Part shown: one piece after another, positions 5,127 to 28,200 of the stretch | Position numbering within the stretch: the first letter of the stretch is position 1 | How the letters are laid out: each line of letters starts with the position of its first letter | Origin: Pseudomonadota bacterium | GTDB lineage: Bacteria > UBA10199 > 2-02-FULL-44-16 > JAAZCA01 | Direction of reading: 5' to 3' | DNA: 29,835 nt | NCBI GenBank assembly: GCA_043798915.1 | Contig: JAZDOG010000053.1 | Coordinates: 1-29,835, forward strand | Position numbers and translations under genes: made by a program | Notes under the pieces: generated by a model | Database searches by the model: none | What the model was told of the DNA's origin: nothing | What the model saw: only the letters and a program-made list of their open reading frames with translations

Positions 5127-5199
5127 GGCCTCGTAGCTCAGTGGATAGAGCACCTGCCTCCTAAGCAGGGGGTCGCGCGTTCGACTCGCGCCGGGGTCA
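5127..5199 (+). tRNA. tRNA-Arg (anticodon CCT), CCA not encoded
   Basis: Acceptor GGCCTCG/CGGGGTC; D arm GCTC-AGTGGATA-GAGC; anticodon arm CCTGC-CTCCTAA-GCAGG; T arm GCGCG-TTCGACT-CGCGC; followed by CAA. Confidence 0.96.
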
Positions 5200-5202
5200 C
5201 AA

Positions 5203-5832
5203 TTGAATATCCCATTTTTTCCCAACACAGGTGATGGAACGCACTGCTTCCAGGCGGCGCTGATGATGGCGCTCGCCGTCGTCATGCGTGAGCGAAAATT
5301 CACATACGACGAGCTGGATGCGATCTCGCAGAAACTCCCCGGCAAATGGACCTGGCCCACGGTCGCGATGCTCTGGATGATAGAGCAGGGCTTGAAGGTA
5401 AATCTCATAGAGGAGTTCGACTACAAGGCCTTCGTCAAACGGGGCGAAAAATATCTCATCGAGCGGTTCGGCGAAGAGGTGGGCTGCGCGCAGGCGGAGC
5501 ACAGCGACATCGATCGGGAGCGCGAGATCGCGCGCCTGTTCATTGCGCTGGCTCCGCTCGAATATCGCGTGCCGGAGCTCAAGGATATAAAGAAACAGCT
5601 GAAGAAGGGTGCGGTCGTGATCCTGAATGTGAATGCCGCCGCGCTCCACGGCGTGGAGGGTTACTCAGGGCACTTTGTGGTGGTCTGCGACGTGAAAAAG
5701 GACTCGATCATCCTGCACGACCCGGGCCTTCCGCCTTATCCCGCTTTGGAGGTCCCGCTCGACCGCTTCGACCGTGCCTGGGGTTATCCCGCAGAGCGGG
5801 ACAAGAACCTCATGGCGATAAAATCGCATTAG
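5203..5832 (+). CDS. Papain-fold peptidase C39-like protein
   Basis: Putative triad Cys (GTHCFQAAL), His (GHFVVV) and Asp (LHDPG); TTG start; no signal peptide. Confidence 0.7.
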   Translation: MNIPFFPNTGDGTHCFQAALMMALAVVMRERKFTYDELDAISQKLPGKWTWPTVAMLWMIEQGLKVNLIEEFDYKAFVKRGEKYLIERFGEEVGCAQAEHSDIDREREIARLFIALAPLEYRVPELKDIKKQLKKGAVVILNVNAAALHGVEGYSGHFVVVCDVKKDSIILHDPGLPPYPALEVPLDRFDRAWGYPAERDKNLMAIKSH

Positions 5833-5857
5833 CGAATTTTTACGCAGCAGAGATCGG

Positions 5858-7369
5858 TCACGGACCGGGCATGATGCGAAGGTGGTCTGCCTCTGACAAC
5901 GGCAGGCTGAGATAAACGCCTTTGACGAGATCCGGCACCGCCTGAACCTCGATGGTCTTTCCGTTCATCGTCTTAGGGTCTGCGCCGCGGCCGATGACCC
6001 TCCATAGCTTCACAGGCACCAGGACCGCCACCGTCTTGTAACGCCCGCCCGATTTGTTGCCTATACTCAAAAAGATGGTATCGGTCCTGAGCATTCCGAC
6101 ATATGACACCGTGCCGCGGACAAGGCTCGGCTGTCCCAGCGCCTGGCCGAGCTGAGCCTCGTCCGTGGCGTCGATTTTTCTGAGACCTAAGGTGGTGAAG
6201 CTCCATCTCACATCCCGCACCTCACCTTTCCATTTGGCCTGGATGCTTACCTCGTAGCGTGTCTGCGGATGCAGCACCTGCTTCGGAACGAGGCAAACGA
6301 CGCCGTACTGACCGAACGTGGTGGCAGGATGTTTGGGGCTCGACAGATAGAATGGCACTGGCCTGCCGTCCTCCATAGTGAGTGTGGCGCTGATCTGCGT
6401 CACCGAATCGAATTCTGGAAACTGCAATGTAATGGGATATCCCCCAGTTCCACCACCAGGGATGGGATTTGGGATCTCACCACCATCATATTCCAACGAC
6501 ACATCCACCTGATCGCGTGCTGGATAGGCGACCGGCCAGTGTGCGTCAGCATCCTTCCCGTCGACCAACATGAGCGCGCTCGCATAACCGCCATCCTTCA
6601 GAAGCGAATAACCGACGCCGATCTGTCGAAGCGATGGCTTCAGGATGGGCCGCCTGTGGTAAAGGGTTGCCATCCACTTATGAACCGCAGTTTCAAGATC
6701 CGGATGGCCTAGGCTAAGGTCTGCATTTCTTCCGCACTCGGCCCCCTCGGGAGTGGCGCCCGGCAATGATGGGTCCTGTTTGTGCGCGTTCAAACCTTGC
6801 ATCGCCGCGGTTCCATAATTGAGGCGCATGTATTCGGCGTGCTCCATGCAGCCTTTGCTGAGTTCCGGATTGAGAGCTACAGGTTCGAGGCCTGCTTGCC
6901 GACGGTACTGGTTGACCAGTTCGAGCACACGCTGCGATGGCGATTTTTGTGCGCCCTTCGGAGAGACTGTTTTGAGGATGGGCTTGGCATCTCTCGCCGC
7001 AGTGTCGGGTGCTCCGGCCCGCGACGATGGCATACGGATCGAAGCGATGACAGTGCTGTGCGGCGGGGCAGGCTGAAGATCGCCGGCGTCCATCTTTTTC
7101 CTGGCCCCGAACGTCCGAGGGGCGAGGAAACTCAGGCTTAAACATGAGCGGAGGCTGGCCGCGTTCATTTCTCTTCCGCCGGGCAGTTTCAGCGTCAAAG
7201 GCGTCTTCCCGGCATTATACTGGTCGACACAGCTGCTGATATTTTCCAGACAATCGGTCTTCTGGTTCCCGGAAAGCTCGTCGCACGATGCGAATGACTT
7301 CGCGCAGGCGCCGGCATCGCCAGCATCCTTGAGCGTGCTGCAAATTTTTGCGTCTCCTCCGCCTGCCAT
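5858..7369 (-). CDS. Modular protein: Cys-rich N-terminal module + CAP (SCP) domain + probable Ig-like and OB-like beta domains
   Basis: CAP motifs VNQYRRQAGLEPV..L...CMEHAEYM and WMATLYHRRPIL.P....IGVG; first 90 aa shared with 11360-12040; RBS GGAGGTTTA; the C-terminal fold assignments are inference. Confidence 0.8.
   Translation of the reverse strand: MAGGGDAKICSTLKDAGDAGACAKSFASCDELSGNQKTDCLENISSCVDQYNAGKTPLTLKLPGGREMNAASLRSCLSLSFLAPRTFGARKKMDAGDLQPAPPHSTVIASIRMPSSRAGAPDTAARDAKPILKTVSPKGAQKSPSQRVLELVNQYRRQAGLEPVALNPELSKGCMEHAEYMRLNYGTAAMQGLNAHKQDPSLPGATPEGAECGRNADLSLGHPDLETAVHKWMATLYHRRPILKPSLRQIGVGYSLLKDGGYASALMLVDGKDADAHWPVAYPARDQVDVSLEYDGGEIPNPIPGGGTGGYPITLQFPEFDSVTQISATLTMEDGRPVPFYLSSPKHPATTFGQYGVVCLVPKQVLHPQTRYEVSIQAKWKGEVRDVRWSFTTLGLRKIDATDEAQLGQALGQPSLVRGTVSYVGMLRTDTIFLSIGNKSGGRYKTVAVLVPVKLWRVIGRGADPKTMNGKTIEVQAVPDLVKGVYLSLPLSEADHLRIMPGP
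7100..7369 (-). repeat. 270-bp dispersed direct repeat, copy 1 (encodes the N-terminal module)
   Basis: Aligns without gaps to 11771-12040 (offset 4671). Confidence 0.93.
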
Positions 7370-7438
7370 GGTCTAAACCTCCCGAGGGAACATCGGTTCT
7401 TTTTATAGCGAAACCTGCCTCCTGAACATCTATTTTTA

Positions 7439-7465
7439 TTATCGGCATCGCCCCCAATTTGTTGC
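7439..7465 (-). promoter_or_regulatory. Putative alternative-sigma (sigma28-like -10) promoter
   Basis: Minus strand GCAAC-AAATTGGGGGCGAT-GCCGATAA; same spacing at two other sites. Confidence 0.65.
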
Positions 7466-7495
7466 TATTTTTTAATAAGCCATATAAATTGCCGC

Positions 7496-7524
7496 TTGAC
7501 ACTTTTTGCGTTAATTGTTAATTT
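7496..7524 (+). promoter_or_regulatory. Sigma70 promoter of ihfB
   Basis: TTGACA(7496-7501)-N17-TAATTT with an extended -10 TG. Confidence 0.65.
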
Positions 7525-7561
7525 CCCTTGTGATATCCGCTGATTAGATAAGGGTGGCTCT

Positions 7562-7885
7562 ATGAATAAATCGGAGCTGATCGAGAGGGTGGCGGAGAAG
7601 CAGGGCATCCCGAAGAGGGGCGCGGAGGACGTCGTGAACCTCGTCTTCGATGCAATGATCGAGGCGATGGTGCGCGGCGATCGCATTGAAATCAGGGGGC
7701 TCGGCAGCTTCATGGTGAAGGACTACGGCTCCTACGTGGGCCGAAATCCGAGGACGGGGGAGTCCATCAAAGTGAGGCCCAAGAGGCTGCCGTTTTTCAA
7801 GGTGGGCAAGGAGTTGAAGGAGCGGGTGGACGGCAAGGATGTAATCGGCGGGGAGGCAAGTCCTCCGGCGTCGCCCGCGCTATAG
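7562..7885 (+). CDS. ihfB: Integration host factor beta / HU-family DNA-binding protein
   Basis: MNKSELIE, IEIRGLGSF, GRNPRTGE, PFFKVGKELKERV. Confidence 0.88.
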   Translation: MNKSELIERVAEKQGIPKRGAEDVVNLVFDAMIEAMVRGDRIEIRGLGSFMVKDYGSYVGRNPRTGESIKVRPKRLPFFKVGKELKERVDGKDVIGGEASPPASPAL

Positions 7886-7942
7886 AAAAAGTCGACAAGC
7901 ATCATTCATTCGCGTCCGTGCCAGGCAGACCATGGAGGTGTT

Positions 7943-9055
7943 ATGGCAGACCTGTCCGGACGCATCTTTTTGCTCGCGCTTCAGCATATCTTCTTCAGCA
8001 ATCCTAAAGTCGGCTGCGAAATTTTAAAGATTGCCGGCTCGACCGAGGCCGCCTTCGGCGGCGACCGCAATCGTTTCCGCGCCTGTTTCGGAAGGGAGGA
8101 GGCGCTCTTCGGGAGATTCCTCTCCTTCTGCGACTGGCCATCTGTAGAGAAGGAGAGCGAAAAAGCGGCAAAGCTGGGGATCGATGTCATCGGGATCGAC
8201 GACGAGGCCTATCCGCCCCTTCTTCGCGAGATATACGACCCGCCCGTCGTCCTTTATGCCAGGGGAAATGGCAAAGAGCTGCTGGATATGCCCGCGGTCG
8301 CGATTGTCGGATCGAGGAAGGCGAGCGCAAACAGCCTGAGGATTGCGGCGTCGATAGCGACGTGCCTTTCGGAGCGCGGTGTGGTCGTCGTCAGCGGGAT
8401 GGCGCTGGGGCTCGACTCGGCGGCCCACGCGGGCGCGCTCCAGGGCTGCACCGGGACGATCGCCGTCATGGGATGCGGACCGGACATCCTGTATCCGCCG
8501 ACCAACTGCGACTTGTCGCGCCGGATCGCGGACTCCGGGCTGATCATCTCCGAATTTCCGCTTGGCACGAGCCCGCGCCTTCACCACTTTCCGCAGCGCA
8601 ACCGGATCATCAGCGGCATGTGCATCGCTGCGATCATCGTCGAGGCTGCCGAAAGAAGCGGGAGCCTCATCACTGCGCGCCTGGCGCTCGAACAGGGGCG
8701 CGAGGTCATGGCGTGTCCAGGCCTCGCCGGTTTGCCGCAGTTTCGCGGAAACAATCGCCTAATCAGGGAGGGGGCGGCCCTGGTCGAGAGCGGGGAGGAT
8801 GTGCTGGAGATCCTCGCCGCACGGCTTCCGGCGGTCTCCATTCCCGAAACCGCTGGACATTTGGAGGTCGATGGGGATATGCACTCCGCACTTTTGCTTG
8901 CCATCGAGTCGCGCGGCGAGGCGTCGGTCGACGAGATAGTCGCCGATACCGGGATGGAGACGCGGCTGATACTCGAAGATATCACGCGGCTGGCCATCAG
9001 CGGCCTCGTGATCGAAAAGCCAGGGCGCAGGTTCTCTATAAACGTGAGGAGATGA
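7943..9055 (+). CDS. dprA: DNA-processing protein DprA
   Basis: YPPLLREIYDPP, AIVGSR, VSGMALGLDSAAH, FPQRNRIISG, SGSLITA; C-terminal winged-helix-like region. Confidence 0.95.
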   Translation: MADLSGRIFLLALQHIFFSNPKVGCEILKIAGSTEAAFGGDRNRFRACFGREEALFGRFLSFCDWPSVEKESEKAAKLGIDVIGIDDEAYPPLLREIYDPPVVLYARGNGKELLDMPAVAIVGSRKASANSLRIAASIATCLSERGVVVVSGMALGLDSAAHAGALQGCTGTIAVMGCGPDILYPPTNCDLSRRIADSGLIISEFPLGTSPRLHHFPQRNRIISGMCIAAIIVEAAERSGSLITARLALEQGREVMACPGLAGLPQFRGNNRLIREGAALVESGEDVLEILAARLPAVSIPETAGHLEVDGDMHSALLLAIESRGEASVDEIVADTGMETRLILEDITRLAISGLVIEKPGRRFSINVRR

Positions 9056-9057
9056 AG

Positions 9058-11358
9058 ATGGAAAAATCCCTCGTGATCGTTGAATCGCCGGCGAAGGCCA
9101 AGACCATCAAGAAATACCTGGGCAAGGGATTCTCCGTCCTTGCCTCTGTCGGGCATATAATGGACCTGCCGCTGCGCGAACTCGGTGTGGACGTGGAGAA
9201 TGATTTCTCGCCGAAGTACGTCGTCATCCGCGGCAAGGCCAGGGTCTTGAAGCAGATCACCGACGCGGCGGCAAAATCCGATCACGTCTATCTCGCGCCC
9301 GATCCAGATCGCGAGGGCGAGGCGATCGCATGGCACATTGCCGAGCAGATCCGCAAATCCACGAAAGCAGCGGCAAAGAAGAAGGGCGCCGCCGGCAAGG
9401 CAGGCGGCGGCCAGCCGGAGCTCCATCGCGCGCTCTTCAACGAGATTACGGCGGCGGCGGTCAAGGCGGCGATAGCCGCGCCTGGCGATCTGGATCGCAA
9501 GCTCTTCGAGGCGCAGCAGGCCAGAAGGATACTCGACAGGCTGGTGGGCTACAAGATATCCCCGATCCTGTGGGAGAAGGTCCGCCGCGGTCTCTCCGCC
9601 GGCAGGGTGCAATCTGTCGCGGTGCGCATTGTTTGCGAGCGCGAGAGGGAGATCGAGGCATTCGTCGCAAGAGAGTATTGGTCCGTTGTCGCAAATCTGG
9701 AGGGGAGCCTTCCTCCGCCTTTCGAGGCGAAGCTGCTCAAGATCGCTGGCAAGGATGCCGAGCTCGCGACAGGCGACGCCGCAAAGGGCGTGGTTGCCGA
9801 GCTCAAGCGGGAGAAATTCCTCCTCTCGTCGGTCAGGAAGAGCGAGCGCAGACGCAAGCCCACGCCGCCGTTCATCACCTCGAAGATCCAGCAGGATGCG
9901 GCGCGAAAGCTGGGCTACACGGCCAAGCGCACGATGGCGCTCGCGCAGATGCTCTATGAAGGCGTGGAGATCGGCGACGAGGGCTCGGTGGGCCTCATCA
10001 CATATATGAGGACCGATTCCGTGCGCGTCTCGGATGGCGCGATCGAAGCGGTGCGCGAATACATAGCGAAGAAATACGGCAAGGAGTCGCTGCCCGAGAG
10101 CCCAATCCGCTACCAGGGCAGGAAGGGGGCGCAGGACGCGCATGAGGCGATCCGGCCGACATCGCTCGACTATCCTCCAGAGGCCGTAGAGAAATATCTC
10201 GATCCCGACGCATTCCGCCTCTATGATCTCATCTGGAAGCGCTTCGTCGCCTCGCAGATGAATCCGGCCGTCTACGACCAGACCGCGTTCGACATCGAGG
10301 CGGGCCGCTATCTGTTTCGCGCCACAGGGCAGGTGCTCAGGTTCCCGGGTTTCATGGCGGTCTATCTCGAGGGCGAGGACGAGGTGTCGGAGAAGGACGA
10401 GGAGGAGAATCCGACGCTGCCTGATATCAAAGAGGGTGAGATCCTCAAGTCGCATGGCATCGAGCCGAACCAGCACTTCACGCAGCCCCCCCCGCGTTTC
10501 ACCGAGGCCACGCTCGTGAAGGAGCTGGAGGAGAAGGGGATCGGGCGGCCCTCCACATACGCCGCCATTATGAGCACGATCCAGGACAAGGGCTACGTCC
10601 GCAAGATCGAAAAGCGCTTCCGCCCGGCCGAGCTGGGCCTTCTGGTCAACGACCTGCTCGTCACCAGCTTCCCTGAGATACTCGACGTCGGCTTCACGGC
10701 ACAGATGGAGAGCGAGTTGGACGATGTCGAGGATGGAAAGCGCGGCTGGGTCGAGGCGCTCAAGGGTTTCTACGGGCCGTTCGACAAGGCGCTTGCGCAG
10801 GCAAAGCACAGGATGAGGGATGTGAAGCGCCAGCAGATGGCGACCGACATCGCGTGCGAGAAGTGCGGGAAACCAATGGTCATAAAATGGGGGCGGCACG
10901 GCGAGTTTCTTGCGTGCTCGGCCTATCCTGACTGCCGCAGTACGAAGGAGTTCATCCGCACCGACGAGGGCGAGGTGAAGGCGCAGGAGGCCCCGACGAC
11001 CGACGAGAAGTGCGAAAAGTGCGGCAGCCCGATGGCAGTCAAGCGCGGCCGGTTCGGGCCCTTCCTGGCGTGCACCAACTACCCGACATGCAAGACCACC
11101 CGCTCGATCGGCACCGGCATCGCCTGCCCTGAGTGCGAAAAGGGCAAGCTCGTCCAGAAGAGCTCGCGCCACGGCCGCGTTTTCTATGGCTGCGACCAAT
11201 ATCCCAAATGCAAATGCGCCCTGTGGGACAGGCCCGTTGCCGGCCCGTGCCCCAAGTGCGGGAACCCCATCCTTGTCGAGAAATATTCGAAGAAGACCGG
11301 CGAGACGAGCGTCGCGTGCCCCAAAAAGGAATGTGACTACAAAAAGATGTCCGAGTAG
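9058..11358 (+). CDS. topA: DNA topoisomerase I with four C-terminal zinc ribbons
   Basis: LVIVESPAKAKTI, DPDREGEAIA, SAGRVQS, LITYMRTDS, GIGRPSTY; GAGGAG RBS before ATG 9058. Confidence 0.97.
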   Translation: MEKSLVIVESPAKAKTIKKYLGKGFSVLASVGHIMDLPLRELGVDVENDFSPKYVVIRGKARVLKQITDAAAKSDHVYLAPDPDREGEAIAWHIAEQIRKSTKAAAKKKGAAGKAGGGQPELHRALFNEITAAAVKAAIAAPGDLDRKLFEAQQARRILDRLVGYKISPILWEKVRRGLSAGRVQSVAVRIVCEREREIEAFVAREYWSVVANLEGSLPPPFEAKLLKIAGKDAELATGDAAKGVVAELKREKFLLSSVRKSERRRKPTPPFITSKIQQDAARKLGYTAKRTMALAQMLYEGVEIGDEGSVGLITYMRTDSVRVSDGAIEAVREYIAKKYGKESLPESPIRYQGRKGAQDAHEAIRPTSLDYPPEAVEKYLDPDAFRLYDLIWKRFVASQMNPAVYDQTAFDIEAGRYLFRATGQVLRFPGFMAVYLEGEDEVSEKDEEENPTLPDIKEGEILKSHGIEPNQHFTQPPPRFTEATLVKELEEKGIGRPSTYAAIMSTIQDKGYVRKIEKRFRPAELGLLVNDLLVTSFPEILDVGFTAQMESELDDVEDGKRGWVEALKGFYGPFDKALAQAKHRMRDVKRQQMATDIACEKCGKPMVIKWGRHGEFLACSAYPDCRSTKEFIRTDEGEVKAQEAPTTDEKCEKCGSPMAVKRGRFGPFLACTNYPTCKTTRSIGTGIACPECEKGKLVQKSSRHGRVFYGCDQYPKCKCALWDRPVAGPCPKCGNPILVEKYSKKTGETSVACPKKECDYKKMSE

Positions 11359-11359
11359 G

Positions 11360-12040
11360 CTAGAGTTTCACGATTTTGATCGATTTGACGCTCTTGAAAT
11401 CACCCGGGCTGGCCAGCTTGATTTCAAATGCGAGGTCGTCGTCGAGTTCGCCGTCGGTGGCTTGAAACTTGATCGGTTTGTCATCGCTCAGCTCATTCCC
11501 ATCTTTTCCCTTCACTGAATAACGCATGCGGAAACGACCGCCGCCGATATCTTCAATGGTGTATTTAAGGACGATTGGAGTGCCTCTCGGTTCCCCGTCG
11601 ACGCTGGCGGTAAGCATCCCTTCGAACTTCTTCTGTCCGCCGACCTCTGGATGAAAGCCAGCCTCCTCAAATCGCACGGTGATCGGTTTTTGCAGATTGG
11701 GTTCATCGTCGATCTTTCGCTCGATCTTGTGTTCAACCAAGCGGCCGATTTTCCGATGGGGCCGGTTTTCCCTGGCCCCGAACGTCCGAGGGGCAAGGAA
11801 GCTCAGGCTCAAACATGAGCGGAGGCTGGCCGTGTTCATTCCCCTTCCGCCGGACAGCTTCAGCATCAAAGGCGTCTTCCCGGCACTATATTGGTCGACA
11901 CAGCTGCCGATATTTTCCAGACAATCGGCCTTCTGGTTCCCGGAAAGCTCGTCGCACGACGCAAATGACTTCATGCATGCGCCGGCATCACCCGCATCCG
12001 TAAGCTTGCCGCAAATTTTTGTGTTTCCTCCGCTTTGCAT
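11360..12040 (-). CDS. Modular hypothetical protein: Cys-rich N-terminal module + unknown beta-rich C-terminal domain
   Basis: First 90 aa are 75/90 identical to those of 5858-7369; RBS GGAGGTTTA before ATG 12040. Confidence 0.8.
   Translation of the reverse strand: MQSGGNTKICGKLTDAGDAGACMKSFASCDELSGNQKADCLENIGSCVDQYSAGKTPLMLKLSGGRGMNTASLRSCLSLSFLAPRTFGARENRPHRKIGRLVEHKIERKIDDEPNLQKPITVRFEEAGFHPEVGGQKKFEGMLTASVDGEPRGTPIVLKYTIEDIGGGRFRMRYSVKGKDGNELSDDKPIKFQATDGELDDDLAFEIKLASPGDFKSVKSIKIVKL
11771..12040 (-). repeat. 270-bp dispersed direct repeat, copy 2
   Basis: Aligns without gaps to 7100-7369; similarity ends abruptly after the codons for APRTFGAR. Confidence 0.93.
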
Positions 12041-12062
12041 AGCCCTTAAACCTCCATTCCTC

Positions 12063-12089
12063 TTATCGTCAATAAGCCCAAAAAGTTGC
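12063..12089 (-). promoter_or_regulatory. Putative alternative-sigma promoter, copy 2
   Basis: Minus strand GCAAC-TTTTTGGGCTTATT-GACGATAA. Confidence 0.65.
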
Positions 12090-12169
12090 GTCCTTTTCAA
12101 CGGACGGCGCGTCATTTTTTATGGCGCAGTGCGGCTGGCGGCCCCCCTTAAAAAAACATAAAAAATCAC

Positions 12170-12196
12170 GCAACATTTTGGCGGATATGCCGAAAA
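12170..12196 (+). promoter_or_regulatory. Putative alternative-sigma promoter, copy 3
   Basis: Plus strand GCAAC-ATTTTGGCGGATAT-GCCGAAAA, 8 nt before ATG 12205. Confidence 0.55.
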
Positions 12197-12204
12197 GGGG
12201 ATTG

Positions 12205-13260
12205 ATGAGAGAATATCATTATAGTGAGGGGGAGCCAGGGGGCGTATCGGCCTTCTGGGGGCGTTATTTTGCCATCCTGATGCTGTTTGCGCTTGTTGCC
12301 TGCCGGCCCGTGACAGCCTGGGCCGCCGATAGCAACCCGGCGGGCAATTCTGGTGCACCGGCTGGCGATGCGGGCACGCAGGATGCAGTCTGTCCTGGCG
12401 ACAGCGATTGCGACGGTGTCCCCGATGATGTCGAAATAAGGATTGGAACGGATCCCCATAAATGCGACACGGACGGCGACGGGTTCTCCGACGGAGTCGA
12501 ACTGGGGTACATCCAGCCGAAGGTTATCAACGGTTGTCACGGCCTGACGGCAGCCGGGACAAATTACCGCTATCCGCACAGGATGGATCCTCTCAATCCC
12601 GATTCGGACGGCGACGGCTTGTGCGATGGCCCGGGGAGCGATGAGATTAAGGGAAAATGCGTTGGCGGCGAGGACAAGAACGGAAATGGCTGGGTGGACG
12701 CGGACGAGACGGATCCGTCCGATCCCGACACCGATGGCGACGGGCTCGATGATTATGTGGAGACGACCGGAGATTTCGATCATGACGGCCTCCCCGATTT
12801 CGACTACCGGCTGGTCAACAACGGTCCGAAATGCAATCCGCCAAAGGGCATGGACGACCTCGACTGCGACGCAATTCCAAATGCCGGGGACCTCGACTCC
12901 GACAACGACGGATGCCCCGACAAGGATGAGGGCGGATGGCTGGACAAGAACAACAACGGCATTCCGGATGTGTACGACGCAGCAGCCAAATCATGTCCTG
13001 AACCTGCCTCTGCCTCCTCATCGTCTTCGACCGGCGGGGCGACCTCCGGTTCAAAGAAGGATGGGGACACCCAAAGCGGGGATTCAGGGCAGTCGCTCTT
13101 TTCTCCAGACGGAACCGATGGCGGTGCCTGCGTTCTCATCCGTGGCCAGGGCGTCCAGGCGGAAACACCTGTCGGCCTTGCTGAAATTATCTTCGGCTTT
13201 TTCGCTGCCCTCCTTGGCTTCCTTGCTGCAGCTCGATTTGCCAGATTCCGGTCCCTGTAA
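12205..13260 (+). CDS. Exported thrombospondin type 3-like (DxDxDG) Ca-binding repeat protein with C-terminal sorting/TM anchor
   Basis: Signal peptide ending AWA-A; about nine DxDxDG-like repeats; Ser/Gly linker; GGAC + hydrophobic helix + basic tail; start uncertain. Confidence 0.78.
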   Translation: MREYHYSEGEPGGVSAFWGRYFAILMLFALVACRPVTAWAADSNPAGNSGAPAGDAGTQDAVCPGDSDCDGVPDDVEIRIGTDPHKCDTDGDGFSDGVELGYIQPKVINGCHGLTAAGTNYRYPHRMDPLNPDSDGDGLCDGPGSDEIKGKCVGGEDKNGNGWVDADETDPSDPDTDGDGLDDYVETTGDFDHDGLPDFDYRLVNNGPKCNPPKGMDDLDCDAIPNAGDLDSDNDGCPDKDEGGWLDKNNNGIPDVYDAAAKSCPEPASASSSSSTGGATSGSKKDGDTQSGDSGQSLFSPDGTDGGACVLIRGQGVQAETPVGLAEIIFGFFAALLGFLAAARFARFRSL

Positions 13261-27155: not shown

Positions 27156-27929
27156 TCATCTGCCGCCGGGACCACGCTGAGGGAATTTTTTCATATTTGT
27201 TCCTTGGCCGCCGCGCGGACCGGGAGGGTTGCCCGCACCTTGGCCGCCGCGCGGACCGGGGGGGTTATTCACGTTCGCGCCTGCACCCGCACCGCCCTGA
27301 GGGCCAGGCCTGTTTTCCCAATTTGATCCTTGGCCGCCACGCGCGCCGGGAGGGTTATTATCGCTATCTCGATTCGTGCCAGCACCTTGGCCGCCGCGCG
27401 GACCGGGGGGATTATTCACGTTCGCGCCTGCACCCGGGCCGCCCTGAGGGCCAGGCCTGTTTTCCCAATTTGATCCTTGGCCGCCGCGCGCGCCAGGAGG
27501 GTTATTATCGCTATCTCGATTCGCGCCCGCACCTGGGCCACCGCGCGGACCTGGCGGGTTATTGCCGGAGCCTTCTTGACGAGCCCCCTTCACATCCTGT
27601 CGAATATCTTGCCGCGCGGAACCCATATCCTGCTTATCCTGCTGCTTCTGCTGAACGTTGGCTTGATGTGTGGATTTTAGCTGATCCTTTAGTTTTTGCG
27701 CAGTTGCCGTATCACCGGACTGTTCAGCAGCGCGGATCTGGTCACGCAGACTCTGTTCTTCCTGCCTGGCGGCAGAAGCATTGTTTCGGATATCACTCTT
27801 CTCAGCCTTAATAGCTGTTTTGTCGCTCCCGGCTGTGGAACCGGCAGTGGCATCCTGCGCGTTCGCACCGGAAGACGCCAGGACACAGAACGTAAAAACA
27901 ACCCCCAAAAACAGTGATGACTTTTTCAT
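27156..27929 (-). CDS. Exported protein with coiled-coil region and Gly/Pro/Asn-rich NPPG.RGG repeats
   Basis: AGGAG RBS; signal peptide ending ANA-Q; repeats NNPPGPRGGQG and WENRPGPQGG. Confidence 0.82.
   Translation of the reverse strand: MKKSSLFLGVVFTFCVLASSGANAQDATAGSTAGSDKTAIKAEKSDIRNNASAARQEEQSLRDQIRAAEQSGDTATAQKLKDQLKSTHQANVQQKQQDKQDMGSARQDIRQDVKGARQEGSGNNPPGPRGGPGAGANRDSDNNPPGARGGQGSNWENRPGPQGGPGAGANVNNPPGPRGGQGAGTNRDSDNNPPGARGGQGSNWENRPGPQGGAGAGANVNNPPGPRGGQGAGNPPGPRGGQGTNMKKFPQRGPGGR
27240..27562. repeat. Intragenic tandem duplication, 147-bp (49-aa) period
   Basis: NRDSDNNPPGARGGQGSNWENRPGPQGG.GAGANVNNPPGPRGGQGAG occurs twice; boundaries approximate. Confidence 0.85.
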
Positions 27930-28200
27930 GTCATTCTCCTTTCTCTTTGTAAGTGTAAACGAGGCCAAATATGCCAAATCATCCTGCATGACGTCAATGT
28001 TAATATCAGCGTCAGAAATATTTTCGGCCGGATAAAGCAAACAGCGTGGTTGAAGCGATGGAAATTAACTGATCTCCCACGGGAACACAAACTGCTCACG
28101 CAACGATTTGAATTGTAAATGGCATTATCAATTCGATCTTGGCGTATGCCCCCAATTGTGCCCCCATAGTGGTTTTAAACTTTGGTAAATCGGCGTAATT

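Follow-up and report, generated by a model that had tools for sequence, protein, structure and literature searches.

A cysteine-rich N-terminal module on unrelated protein tails in an uncultured bacterial order, a candidate handle for delivery outside Sec

What does it mean when two genes of one genome start with almost the same 90 codons and are unrelated from there on? The question is raised by a stretch of 29,835 nucleotides, called the window in what follows, that covers positions 1 to 29,835 of the forward strand of contig JAZDOG010000053.1 in the assembly GCA_043798915.1 of a Pseudomonadota bacterium (GTDB lineage UBA10199; 2-02-FULL-44-16; JAAZCA01). Two minus-strand genes of the window, gene A (5858-7369, 503 amino acids) and gene B (11360-12040, 226 amino acids), encode proteins that share much of their first 90 residues, here termed the head. 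A preliminary description of this DNA, made from the sequence alone, had seen in the two heads a six-cysteine module fused to unrelated cargo, possibly for export. The comparisons described below indicate that the module is almost certainly a real protein domain family, and all its known carriers fall in two families of a single uncultured order. The head would be a lineage-specific, cysteine-stapled N-terminal domain that might serve as a transferable handle for delivery outside Sec. The genome of the window is labelled G000, the class-wide sample of genomes G000-G092, and loci carry numbers preceded by L.

The shared head and the two genes that carry it

A repeat search of the window yields one 275-nt direct repeat, with the copies at 7095-7369 and 11766-12040, both on the minus strand, at the 5' ends of the two open reading frames (ORFs) and 4671 nt apart, start to start. 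The copies are 89% identical, differing at 30 of the 275 nucleotides. Codons 1-90 of gene A (7100-7369) and of gene B encode heads that are identical at 75 of 90 residues, with cysteines at positions 10, 22, 29, 40, 47 and 76 in both and with residues 71-90 the same in both, the three nucleotide changes in this last segment all being synonymous; the repeat search and the alignment thus bear out the shared block, the fixed cysteines and the invariant final 20 residues that had been reported. The similarity ends as abruptly as described, within about 5 nt after codon 90. On the other side, the copied block begins ∼15-20 nt 5' of the ATG, with a 3-nt indel, so that it takes in the ribosome-binding site (RBS) GGAGGTTTA, which does lie upstream of both start codons as had been noticed (7374-7382, minus strand, 4 nt before the ATG of gene A, and 12047-12055, minus strand, 6 nt before that of gene B). 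The genome of 2.34 Mb (105 contigs, 97% complete) holds no third copy of the repeat that could be found by DNA and protein searches.

Frame 0 is the sole sense frame that is open in both repeat copies; the antisense frame that shares its wobble positions is open in both as well, but has no supporting homologues. An RNA element was considered and rejected, the only Rfam match in the window being a tRNA at 5127-5199. Between the two heads, the synonymous divergence (dS) is 0.22, and the ratio of non-synonymous to synonymous divergence (dN/dS) is 0.39 for the whole head and 0.24 for the core codons 25-90; these ratios, with only 29 changes behind them, argue for constraint on both copies.

Gene B appears to be the resident of the two. 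A B-type gene, convergent and directly after dprA-topA, is present in eight genomes (that of the window, G011, G006, G009, G005, G001, G003 and G004), with a divergent TSP3-repeat gene following it in five of the eight loci and a gene for a XerC-type integrase in six. The eight proteins align end to end: 1.5 or 2 modules come first, then a linker that varies and finally a beta domain of 110 residues with the conserved ending S-I-x-I-V-K-L; in gene B, these parts are the head (11766-12040), a disordered linker (residues 88-116) and the beta domain of residues 117-226 (11363-11692, minus strand), which ends in SIKIVKL. In a BLASTP comparison with the homologue L039, the tail of gene B gives an E-value of 1e-6 and the head an E-value of 1e-3. 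Because the homologues of gene B align over both head and tail, this gene is vertically inherited and is not captured cargo. No Pfam or NCBIfam family covers it, and as a single query against 5.8 billion proteins it matched only itself. The earlier suggestion that each of the two genes sits in its own gap in the housekeeping gene order accordingly applies to gene A only.

In gene A, the head is followed by a proline-rich linker (residues 91-140; 6950-7099, minus strand), a CAP domain (residues 149-262; 6584-6925, minus strand) and a beta-rich region. The CAP assignment made in the preliminary description is confirmed by a match to PF00188 (E 2e-14, 54.9 bits versus a cut-off of 21.1). Not one of the 12 family genomes encodes the tail of this protein (residues 91-503). 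A large database contains 124 homologues, the best 120 of which are 47-59% identical, measure 283-435 amino acids in length and, where named, come from Kofleriaceae or ‘Deltaproteobacteria' metagenome-assembled genomes (MAGs). These homologues align only from about residue 141 of gene A, after signal peptides and a Pro-rich tether of their own that occupy the place of the linker in the alignment. Homologues of gene B do continue across residue 90, and the preliminary description had counted such continuation, in both proteins, among the findings that would refute its idea. A Sec or lipoprotein signal peptide is visible in all six CAP homologues that were fetched, and gene A has neither a signal peptide nor a lipobox. 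From about residue 141 to residue 503, three cysteines are invariant between gene A and its homologues, and the reading frame is intact across all 503 codons. The tail therefore resembles the secreted or lipoprotein CAP/YkwD-like proteins (PF00188) of the Kofleriaceae type, from Myxococcota, but the N-terminal signal peptide of those proteins gives way to the 90-residue head.

The location of gene A points in the same direction. The gene lies between a C39-like gene and an HU/IHF gene (5832-7562), and in three of four relatives (G001, G009 and G003) the corresponding spacer measures only 139-202 bp; in the fourth, G006 (L139 862-2636), it holds an unrelated 432-aa ORF that has no Pfam family and is also preceded by a promoter of the sigma-28-like type discussed below (score 11.8). 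This spacer is a variable insertion spot. The simplest history would be that a foreign CAP lipoprotein gene landed at this variable intergenic site and that a copy of the start of gene B, RBS and head included, took the place of its signal peptide. It is, on the evidence of the alignments and gene order, very probable that gene B is the ancestral member and that gene A is a chimera in which the head has supplanted the signal peptide. The notion of a mobile expression and leader cassette that captures foreign C termini consequently holds in part: in gene A the head does stand in for a signal peptide, but the tail of gene B has not been captured.

A second case comes from another genus. At locus L145 of G011, two neighbouring genes (443 and 363 amino acids) encode proteins that are identical at 233 of their first 234 residues, a stretch of two modules and a linker, and that have no similarity beyond it. 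At the DNA level, 683 nt match without a single difference, identity is ∼85% in the 60 nt upstream, and the similarity breaks off abruptly; the upstream differences imply two distinct loci, so that the pair is the product of either a recent conversion or a very recent copying event. Judging from these sequences, the same kind of head transfer onto another tail has occurred independently in this genus, and the expectation of a constant head with swapped tails is thus borne out by near-identical heads on unrelated tails in a second genome.

The border of the copied block can be compared with a predicted structure. The AlphaFold2 model of gene B, built on a 7-sequence alignment, has a mean predicted local distance difference test score (pLDDT) of 76.5, with values of 82-91 in the head, which is modelled as three helices (residues 4-10, 16-29 and 34-52), a beta hairpin (58-70) and two short helices (73-87). 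Residues 88-116 are disordered in the model. As the copied block ends where the last helix ends (residue 87) and the disordered linker starts, the break falls at a predicted domain boundary. The C-x6-C pairs are, in the model, on helices, about one heptad apart, and stapling of the head cysteines by disulfides is a conceivable consequence of this arrangement. The tail of gene B, modelled alone, is a confident seven-strand antiparallel sheet (pLDDT 90.7, predicted template modelling score 0.83) with no PDB match (Foldseek best E 0.11, VIA best Z 4.4). Foldseek found no match in PDB for the whole gene B model at E ≤ 0.001, and for the head fold the best VIA hits (Z 6.7) are designed helical bundles, within the noise for helical proteins.

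Distribution of the module and diversity of its tails

In ORFs under weak matches in relatives, a core pattern recurs, C-x8-13-C-x6-C-x24-34-C. The head of the window genes amounts to 1.5 such modules, C10-C22-C29 overlapping C29-C40-C47-C76. When 60 related genomes were searched with one sequence, weak matches appeared in four of the 12 that belong to the same family; a profile made from 8 module instances (A2) gave 29 matches in 10 of the 22 genomes of the order; and a profile of 29 instances (A4), in whose alignment the core has four cysteines, brought the class-wide total to 12 genomes with the module out of 93, counting the genome of the window. By family, the A4 matches fall in 9 of 12 genomes of f1, 2 of 4 of f4 and none of 76 in the other 22 families. 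In repeat copy A, the module profile matches at 7127-7297 with an E-value of 6.6e-26. The most complete relative, G003 (3 contigs), has 13 module matches, some of them in tandem paralogue arrays. The prediction of many dispersed copies with diverse tails in the genome of the window itself failed, as DNA, protein and profile searches all return only two copies.

Outside this lineage, the module is hardly visible. A HMMER search of 1.84 billion representative sequences with the head returned only A, B and P0122, and the last of these, a 2156-aa repeat protein without cysteines, was discarded as spurious. When the profile was run against 5.8 billion proteins, 11 matched, and gene A is the only one of them with a Pfam domain. 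Neither Pfam nor NCBIfam has a family for the head, so that the earlier failure to recognize it as a named family stands. The ESM Atlas gave no usable feature match for head or tail, with structure rows below the bar, and a literature search for such a module found nothing of the kind among the matches listed, which is weak evidence since the module has no name to search by.

The module is, with few exceptions, N-terminal: in 26 of the 29 profile-positive proteins, the first module begins no more than 100 residues from the start of the longest ORF, and in one of the remaining three, L054, the predicted promoter falls inside the called ORF. The proteins also lack a conventional leader. The Kyte-Doolittle maximum over 15 residues within the first 60 positions is 0.49 for gene A and 0.52 for gene B, and does not exceed 1.32 in 19 of 20 module proteins of relatives, compared with a median of 2.19 for 119 CAP homologues, 101 of which reach at least 1.8. 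None of the proteins with an N-terminal module has a hydrophobic leader, and the absence of a Sec or Tat signal noted earlier for A and B is reproduced, with no hydrophobic N-terminal segment and no RR motif visible in either.

An all-against-all BLASTP comparison sorts 22 module proteins into about ten tail classes that are mutually non-alignable; a constant head with variable tails, as had been described, is therefore found at the level of the bacterial family. The tails are almost devoid of known domains: a Pfam family above the cut-off was detected in only one of 20 module proteins (TPR, in L056) and an NCBIfam family in none of 28. Besides the topA synteny of the B type, no conserved neighbour of module genes was detected. 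L042 and L051 are preceded by a gene for a 174-184-aa protein, to which Pfam assigns no family. The arrays of G003 (L143, G003:C2:244500-264400, and L144) consist of four to five consecutive paralogues on the same strand, whose module-type N-termini start with MGNDITKPRQAR, MASKINNPRQAR and MGNEITTPRQAR.

A probable sigma-28-type regulon and a type III apparatus without flagellin

The promoter-like motif that had been noticed upstream of both genes is real: GCAAC-N16-CGATAA precedes A and B. A position weight matrix (PWM) built from 40 sites, with those of A and B left out, scores 30.0 for the gene A promoter (7439-7465, minus strand), the −10 element of which ends 69 nt before the ATG, and 41.6 for that of gene B (12063-12089, minus strand; 22 nt before the ATG), the 99.5th background percentile being 7.5. 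The promoter might have been copied along with the repeat block, but the two spacers agree at only 7 of 16 positions, mostly general-consensus ones, and the distance to the ATG is not the same. The genome of the window contains 45 such sites, whereas 20 local shuffles yield 3.05 on average (range 0-7) and the reversed genome yields 0, and the spacing is exactly 16 in 42 of the 45; each of five relatives has 58-94 sites, against one to three in a backward control. Among 31 module genes, 19 are preceded by a site that scores beyond the 99th percentile of the background, the expectation being ∼0.3, and several of those without a site are internal genes of same-strand arrays. It can also be observed that, in the paralogue runs of G003, the promoter tends to sit only before the first gene.

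The PWM consensus, GCAACTTT-n11-GCCGATAA, is close to the E. coli sigma-28 consensus, TAAAGTTT-n11-GCCGATAA, as given in PMC2859248. Sigma-28 (FliA/WhiG) promoters have the same −10 octamer, the same 11-nt spacer and a −35 element that likewise ends in a run of T, but their −35 element begins with TAAAG, and here it begins with GCAAC (PMC2859248). This is probably a regulon of the sigma-28 type, although it differs from known sigma-28 systems in that the organism has no flagellin and the 45-94 sites per genome precede genes for mostly unannotatable proteins. Downstream ORFs could be assigned to 41 of the 45 sites, and ∼30 of the encoded proteins have no normal signal peptide. Pfam searches of 39 regulon ORFs outside the window identified four FGE-sulfatase proteins, two subtilases and TPR proteins, with 22 of the 39 lacking any family.

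Many of the signal-less regulon proteins begin with M-x-[GA]-[GA]-G-[DE/N] (MAGGGD, MQSGGN, MTAGGE, MAAGGE, MIGAGE, MIGAGD, MTGAGE, MGGGEG; example sites C76:25091+, C85:35773+, C92:19781-, C102:7129+ and C20:1384-), often with a cysteine within the next 5-15 residues; four of these are the FGE-sulfatase proteins. Many module proteins of relatives start with MG. The M-x-[GA]-[GA]-G start may reflect an N-terminal signal common to these proteins, or else a Shine-Dalgarno-like GGAGG in the first codons.

The search for co-occurring secretion machinery that had been proposed led to a non-flagellar type III cluster with the same promoter type on its SctJ operon. The cluster, on contig 20 of the genome of the window, encodes homologues of YscJ/FliF-type (SctJ), FliH/SctL, EscN-type ATPase, YscO-like, FliK-like, FliM/FliN, FliO and FliP/Q/R proteins (in the Sct nomenclature J, L, N, O-like, Q, R, S and T), together with three TPR proteins, one of which resembles SycD/LcrH chaperones (E 7e-10, below the cut-off). 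It also includes a gene for a 494-aa thioredoxin-domain protein (L147 519-2000, minus strand, G000 contig 20), which is worth mentioning given the cysteine-rich candidate substrates. A FHIPEP homologue is encoded away from the cluster, on contig 42. Searches of this genome and of G001 and G003 detected no flagellin. Class-wide, FliP/SctR is present in all 93 genomes and flagellin in 12 of them; a type III apparatus of the non-flagellar kind, with FliG/FliM/FliN/FliO-like parts retained, seems to be a trait of the entire class, in genomes of 1.1-4.6 Mb.

One of the sigma-28-like sites heads an 848-aa ORF that opens the operon with the SctJ homologue. The cluster further encodes a 309-aa sigma factor, the best match to FliA/WhiG in the genome (131 bits), which is in turn its best NCBIfam match (E 1.1e-37, 130 bits). 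It would be this FliA-like factor of the type III cluster that reads the promoters of the module genes, an assignment that we consider rather likely.

A third promoter of this type (12164-12204, plus strand, PWM score 38.1) stands back to back with that of gene B and serves the divergent TSP3-repeat gene (12121-13260, plus strand; TSP3_bac). The encoded protein has a lipobox-like leader (..FALVAC) and, at the C-terminus, a hydrophobic tail followed by basic residues that looks like a sorting tag. Elsewhere in the window, a tandem array with units of 147 nt (96% identical) and sub-repeats of 44 nt occupies 27187-27560, within a minus-strand ORF (27156-28040).

Possible roles of the head

The reading preferred here is that the head supplies export or docking information, that the most likely route would be the non-flagellar type III secretion system (T3SS) of the lineage, and that the head cysteines may form disulfides once outside the cytoplasm. 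Its parts differ in strength. That the head is a transferable N-terminal handle on which Sec-independent export or targeting depends has a little less than an even chance of being true. The T3SS as the export route is possible but doubtful. The complete scenario, in which a new secretion tag leads into the T3SS or another Sec-independent route, replaces the Sec signal and spreads as a cassette of RBS and head under a FliA-type late promoter, would, taken as a whole, be unlikely.

A considerable number of observations weigh against this reading. That the module proteins are exported is something we infer. Proteins that leave through a T3SS generally do so unfolded and contain few cysteines, so that a folded, cysteine-rich head, as modelled, is atypical for them. 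FliP is universal in the class, whereas the module is confined to 12 of the 93 genomes, and three genomes of the family (G002, G007 and G012) have FliP and no module match; the module is thus not tied to the type III machine. The promoter is not a guide to export either, because the regulon includes a PolX-PHP polymerase, a GGDEF protein and a DnaJ-PilZ protein, all clearly cytoplasmic, as well as ∼10 proteins with normal signal peptides; what it defines is the wide regulon of an alternative sigma factor and not a set of secreted proteins, and membership in this regulon does not imply export by the T3SS. The candidate sigma factor scores below the curated NCBIfam cut-off of 189.6 bits, the search for FlgM found none, and the −35 sequence GCAAC is also reminiscent of promoters of the extracytoplasmic function type. 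In L041 and L044, the module is C-terminal; the genome of the window has only two copies; the G011 pair lies on a scaffold of 6.2 kb that is interrupted by 40 Ns and belongs to a MAG of 78% completeness; and the number of changes on which the dN/dS values are based is small.

Several of these observations are accommodated if the module is a cytoplasmic domain, for redox sensing, metal binding or oligomerization, in a broad alternative-sigma regulon, with the CAP domain of gene A retained inside the cell in a new function or in none. Such a role, which may be regarded as possible, if doubtful, fits with the lack of signal peptides in the module proteins and likewise in the four FGE-sulfatase proteins of the regulon, with the cytoplasmic regulon members and with the compact helical bundle predicted for the head. 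It sits less well with the cysteines themselves, which in the A4 alignment show neither the CxxC nor the histidine pattern typical of zinc and iron-sulfur sites and number four in the core, an even number, as disulfide pairs would need. Nor would a generic interaction domain be expected to keep so strictly to the N-terminus as in 26 of 29 proteins; moreover, the CAP fold is one used extracellularly, to judge from the hydrophobic leader of 101 of the 119 homologues, and the frame of gene A has stayed intact over its 503 codons. More modest still would be a one-off local partial duplication of no function, gene A being an accidental chimera or a decaying gene. There are indeed only two copies in this genome, and gene A is unique to it within the family, but the integrity of the gene A ORF and its 47-59% identity to homologues over the tail, a dN/dS of 0.24 in the head core with all six cysteines kept, a block that brings its own RBS and stops at a domain boundary, a regulon-type promoter of its own in front of gene A and the independent case in G011 together render this improbable.

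The preliminary description had appealed to the logic of polymorphic effectors or toxins, and a system of the MIX/LXG/Rhs/CDI kind, with a trafficking head, toxin tails and immunity neighbours, would account for a constant head on variable tails and for the tandem paralogue arrays of G003. It is very improbable nonetheless, given that the Pfam (20 proteins) and NCBIfam (28 proteins) searches turned up TPR and CAP only and no toxin family, that convergent housekeeping genes directly follow A and B, leaving no small immunity-like ORFs, that the type VI secretion sheath gene TssC (PF05943) is found in none of five genomes with a completeness of 96-100%, and that the tail of gene B is conserved and orthologous, not polymorphic. 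The resemblance to the heads of polymorphic effectors (MIX, LXG, PAAR/Rhs, the N-terminal region of CdiA) comes down to a single N-terminal domain on many tails and recent recombination at the domain junction; module genes differ in numbering 2 to ∼12 per genome and in including, in gene B, a stable single-copy orthologue.

The preferred reading, a handle for Sec-independent delivery, can also be set against known systems. With T3SS substrates, including the late flagellar ones under sigma-28, the module proteins have in common the N-terminal position of the presumed signal, the lack of a Sec signal and, as far as the promoter of so broad a regulon can suggest it, a possible co-regulation with the export apparatus through a FliA-type site, and a T3SS without flagellin is at hand here. 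The differences are that the signal of T3SS substrates is disordered, whereas the module is a conserved domain of 60-90 residues, predicted to be folded and rich in cysteine, and that no dedicated chaperone gene adjoins the module genes. An analogy, and only that, is provided by the twin-Cx9C (CHCH) helical hairpins of the mitochondrial intermembrane space, which resemble the head in having cysteines about one heptad apart (C-x6-C in the head) on the helices of a small bundle and no classical presequence, but differ in spacing, in topology (the head has an extra hairpin) and in organism.

What is unusual in this lineage is a conserved handle that would be a folded cysteine-rich domain that seems to have replaced the Sec signal on an acquired extracellular protein and that falls under a FliA-type regulon, the organism having type III export genes and lacking flagellin. 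The promoter motif, with 45-94 sites per genome, and the candidate sigma factor open this regulon to an in vitro test that does not require cultivation. Should the head prove to be cytoplasmic, the module would still be a new small cysteine-rich domain family with recurrent recombination at the domain boundary, of narrower interest. If the proposed role is correct, gene A would be a natural experiment in which the Sec signal of a foreign secreted protein was swapped for a lineage-specific domain, the swap recurring in a second genus; the head would be a new portable secretion tag, and the module proteins may amount to a first list of what the non-flagellar type III system of this class transports.

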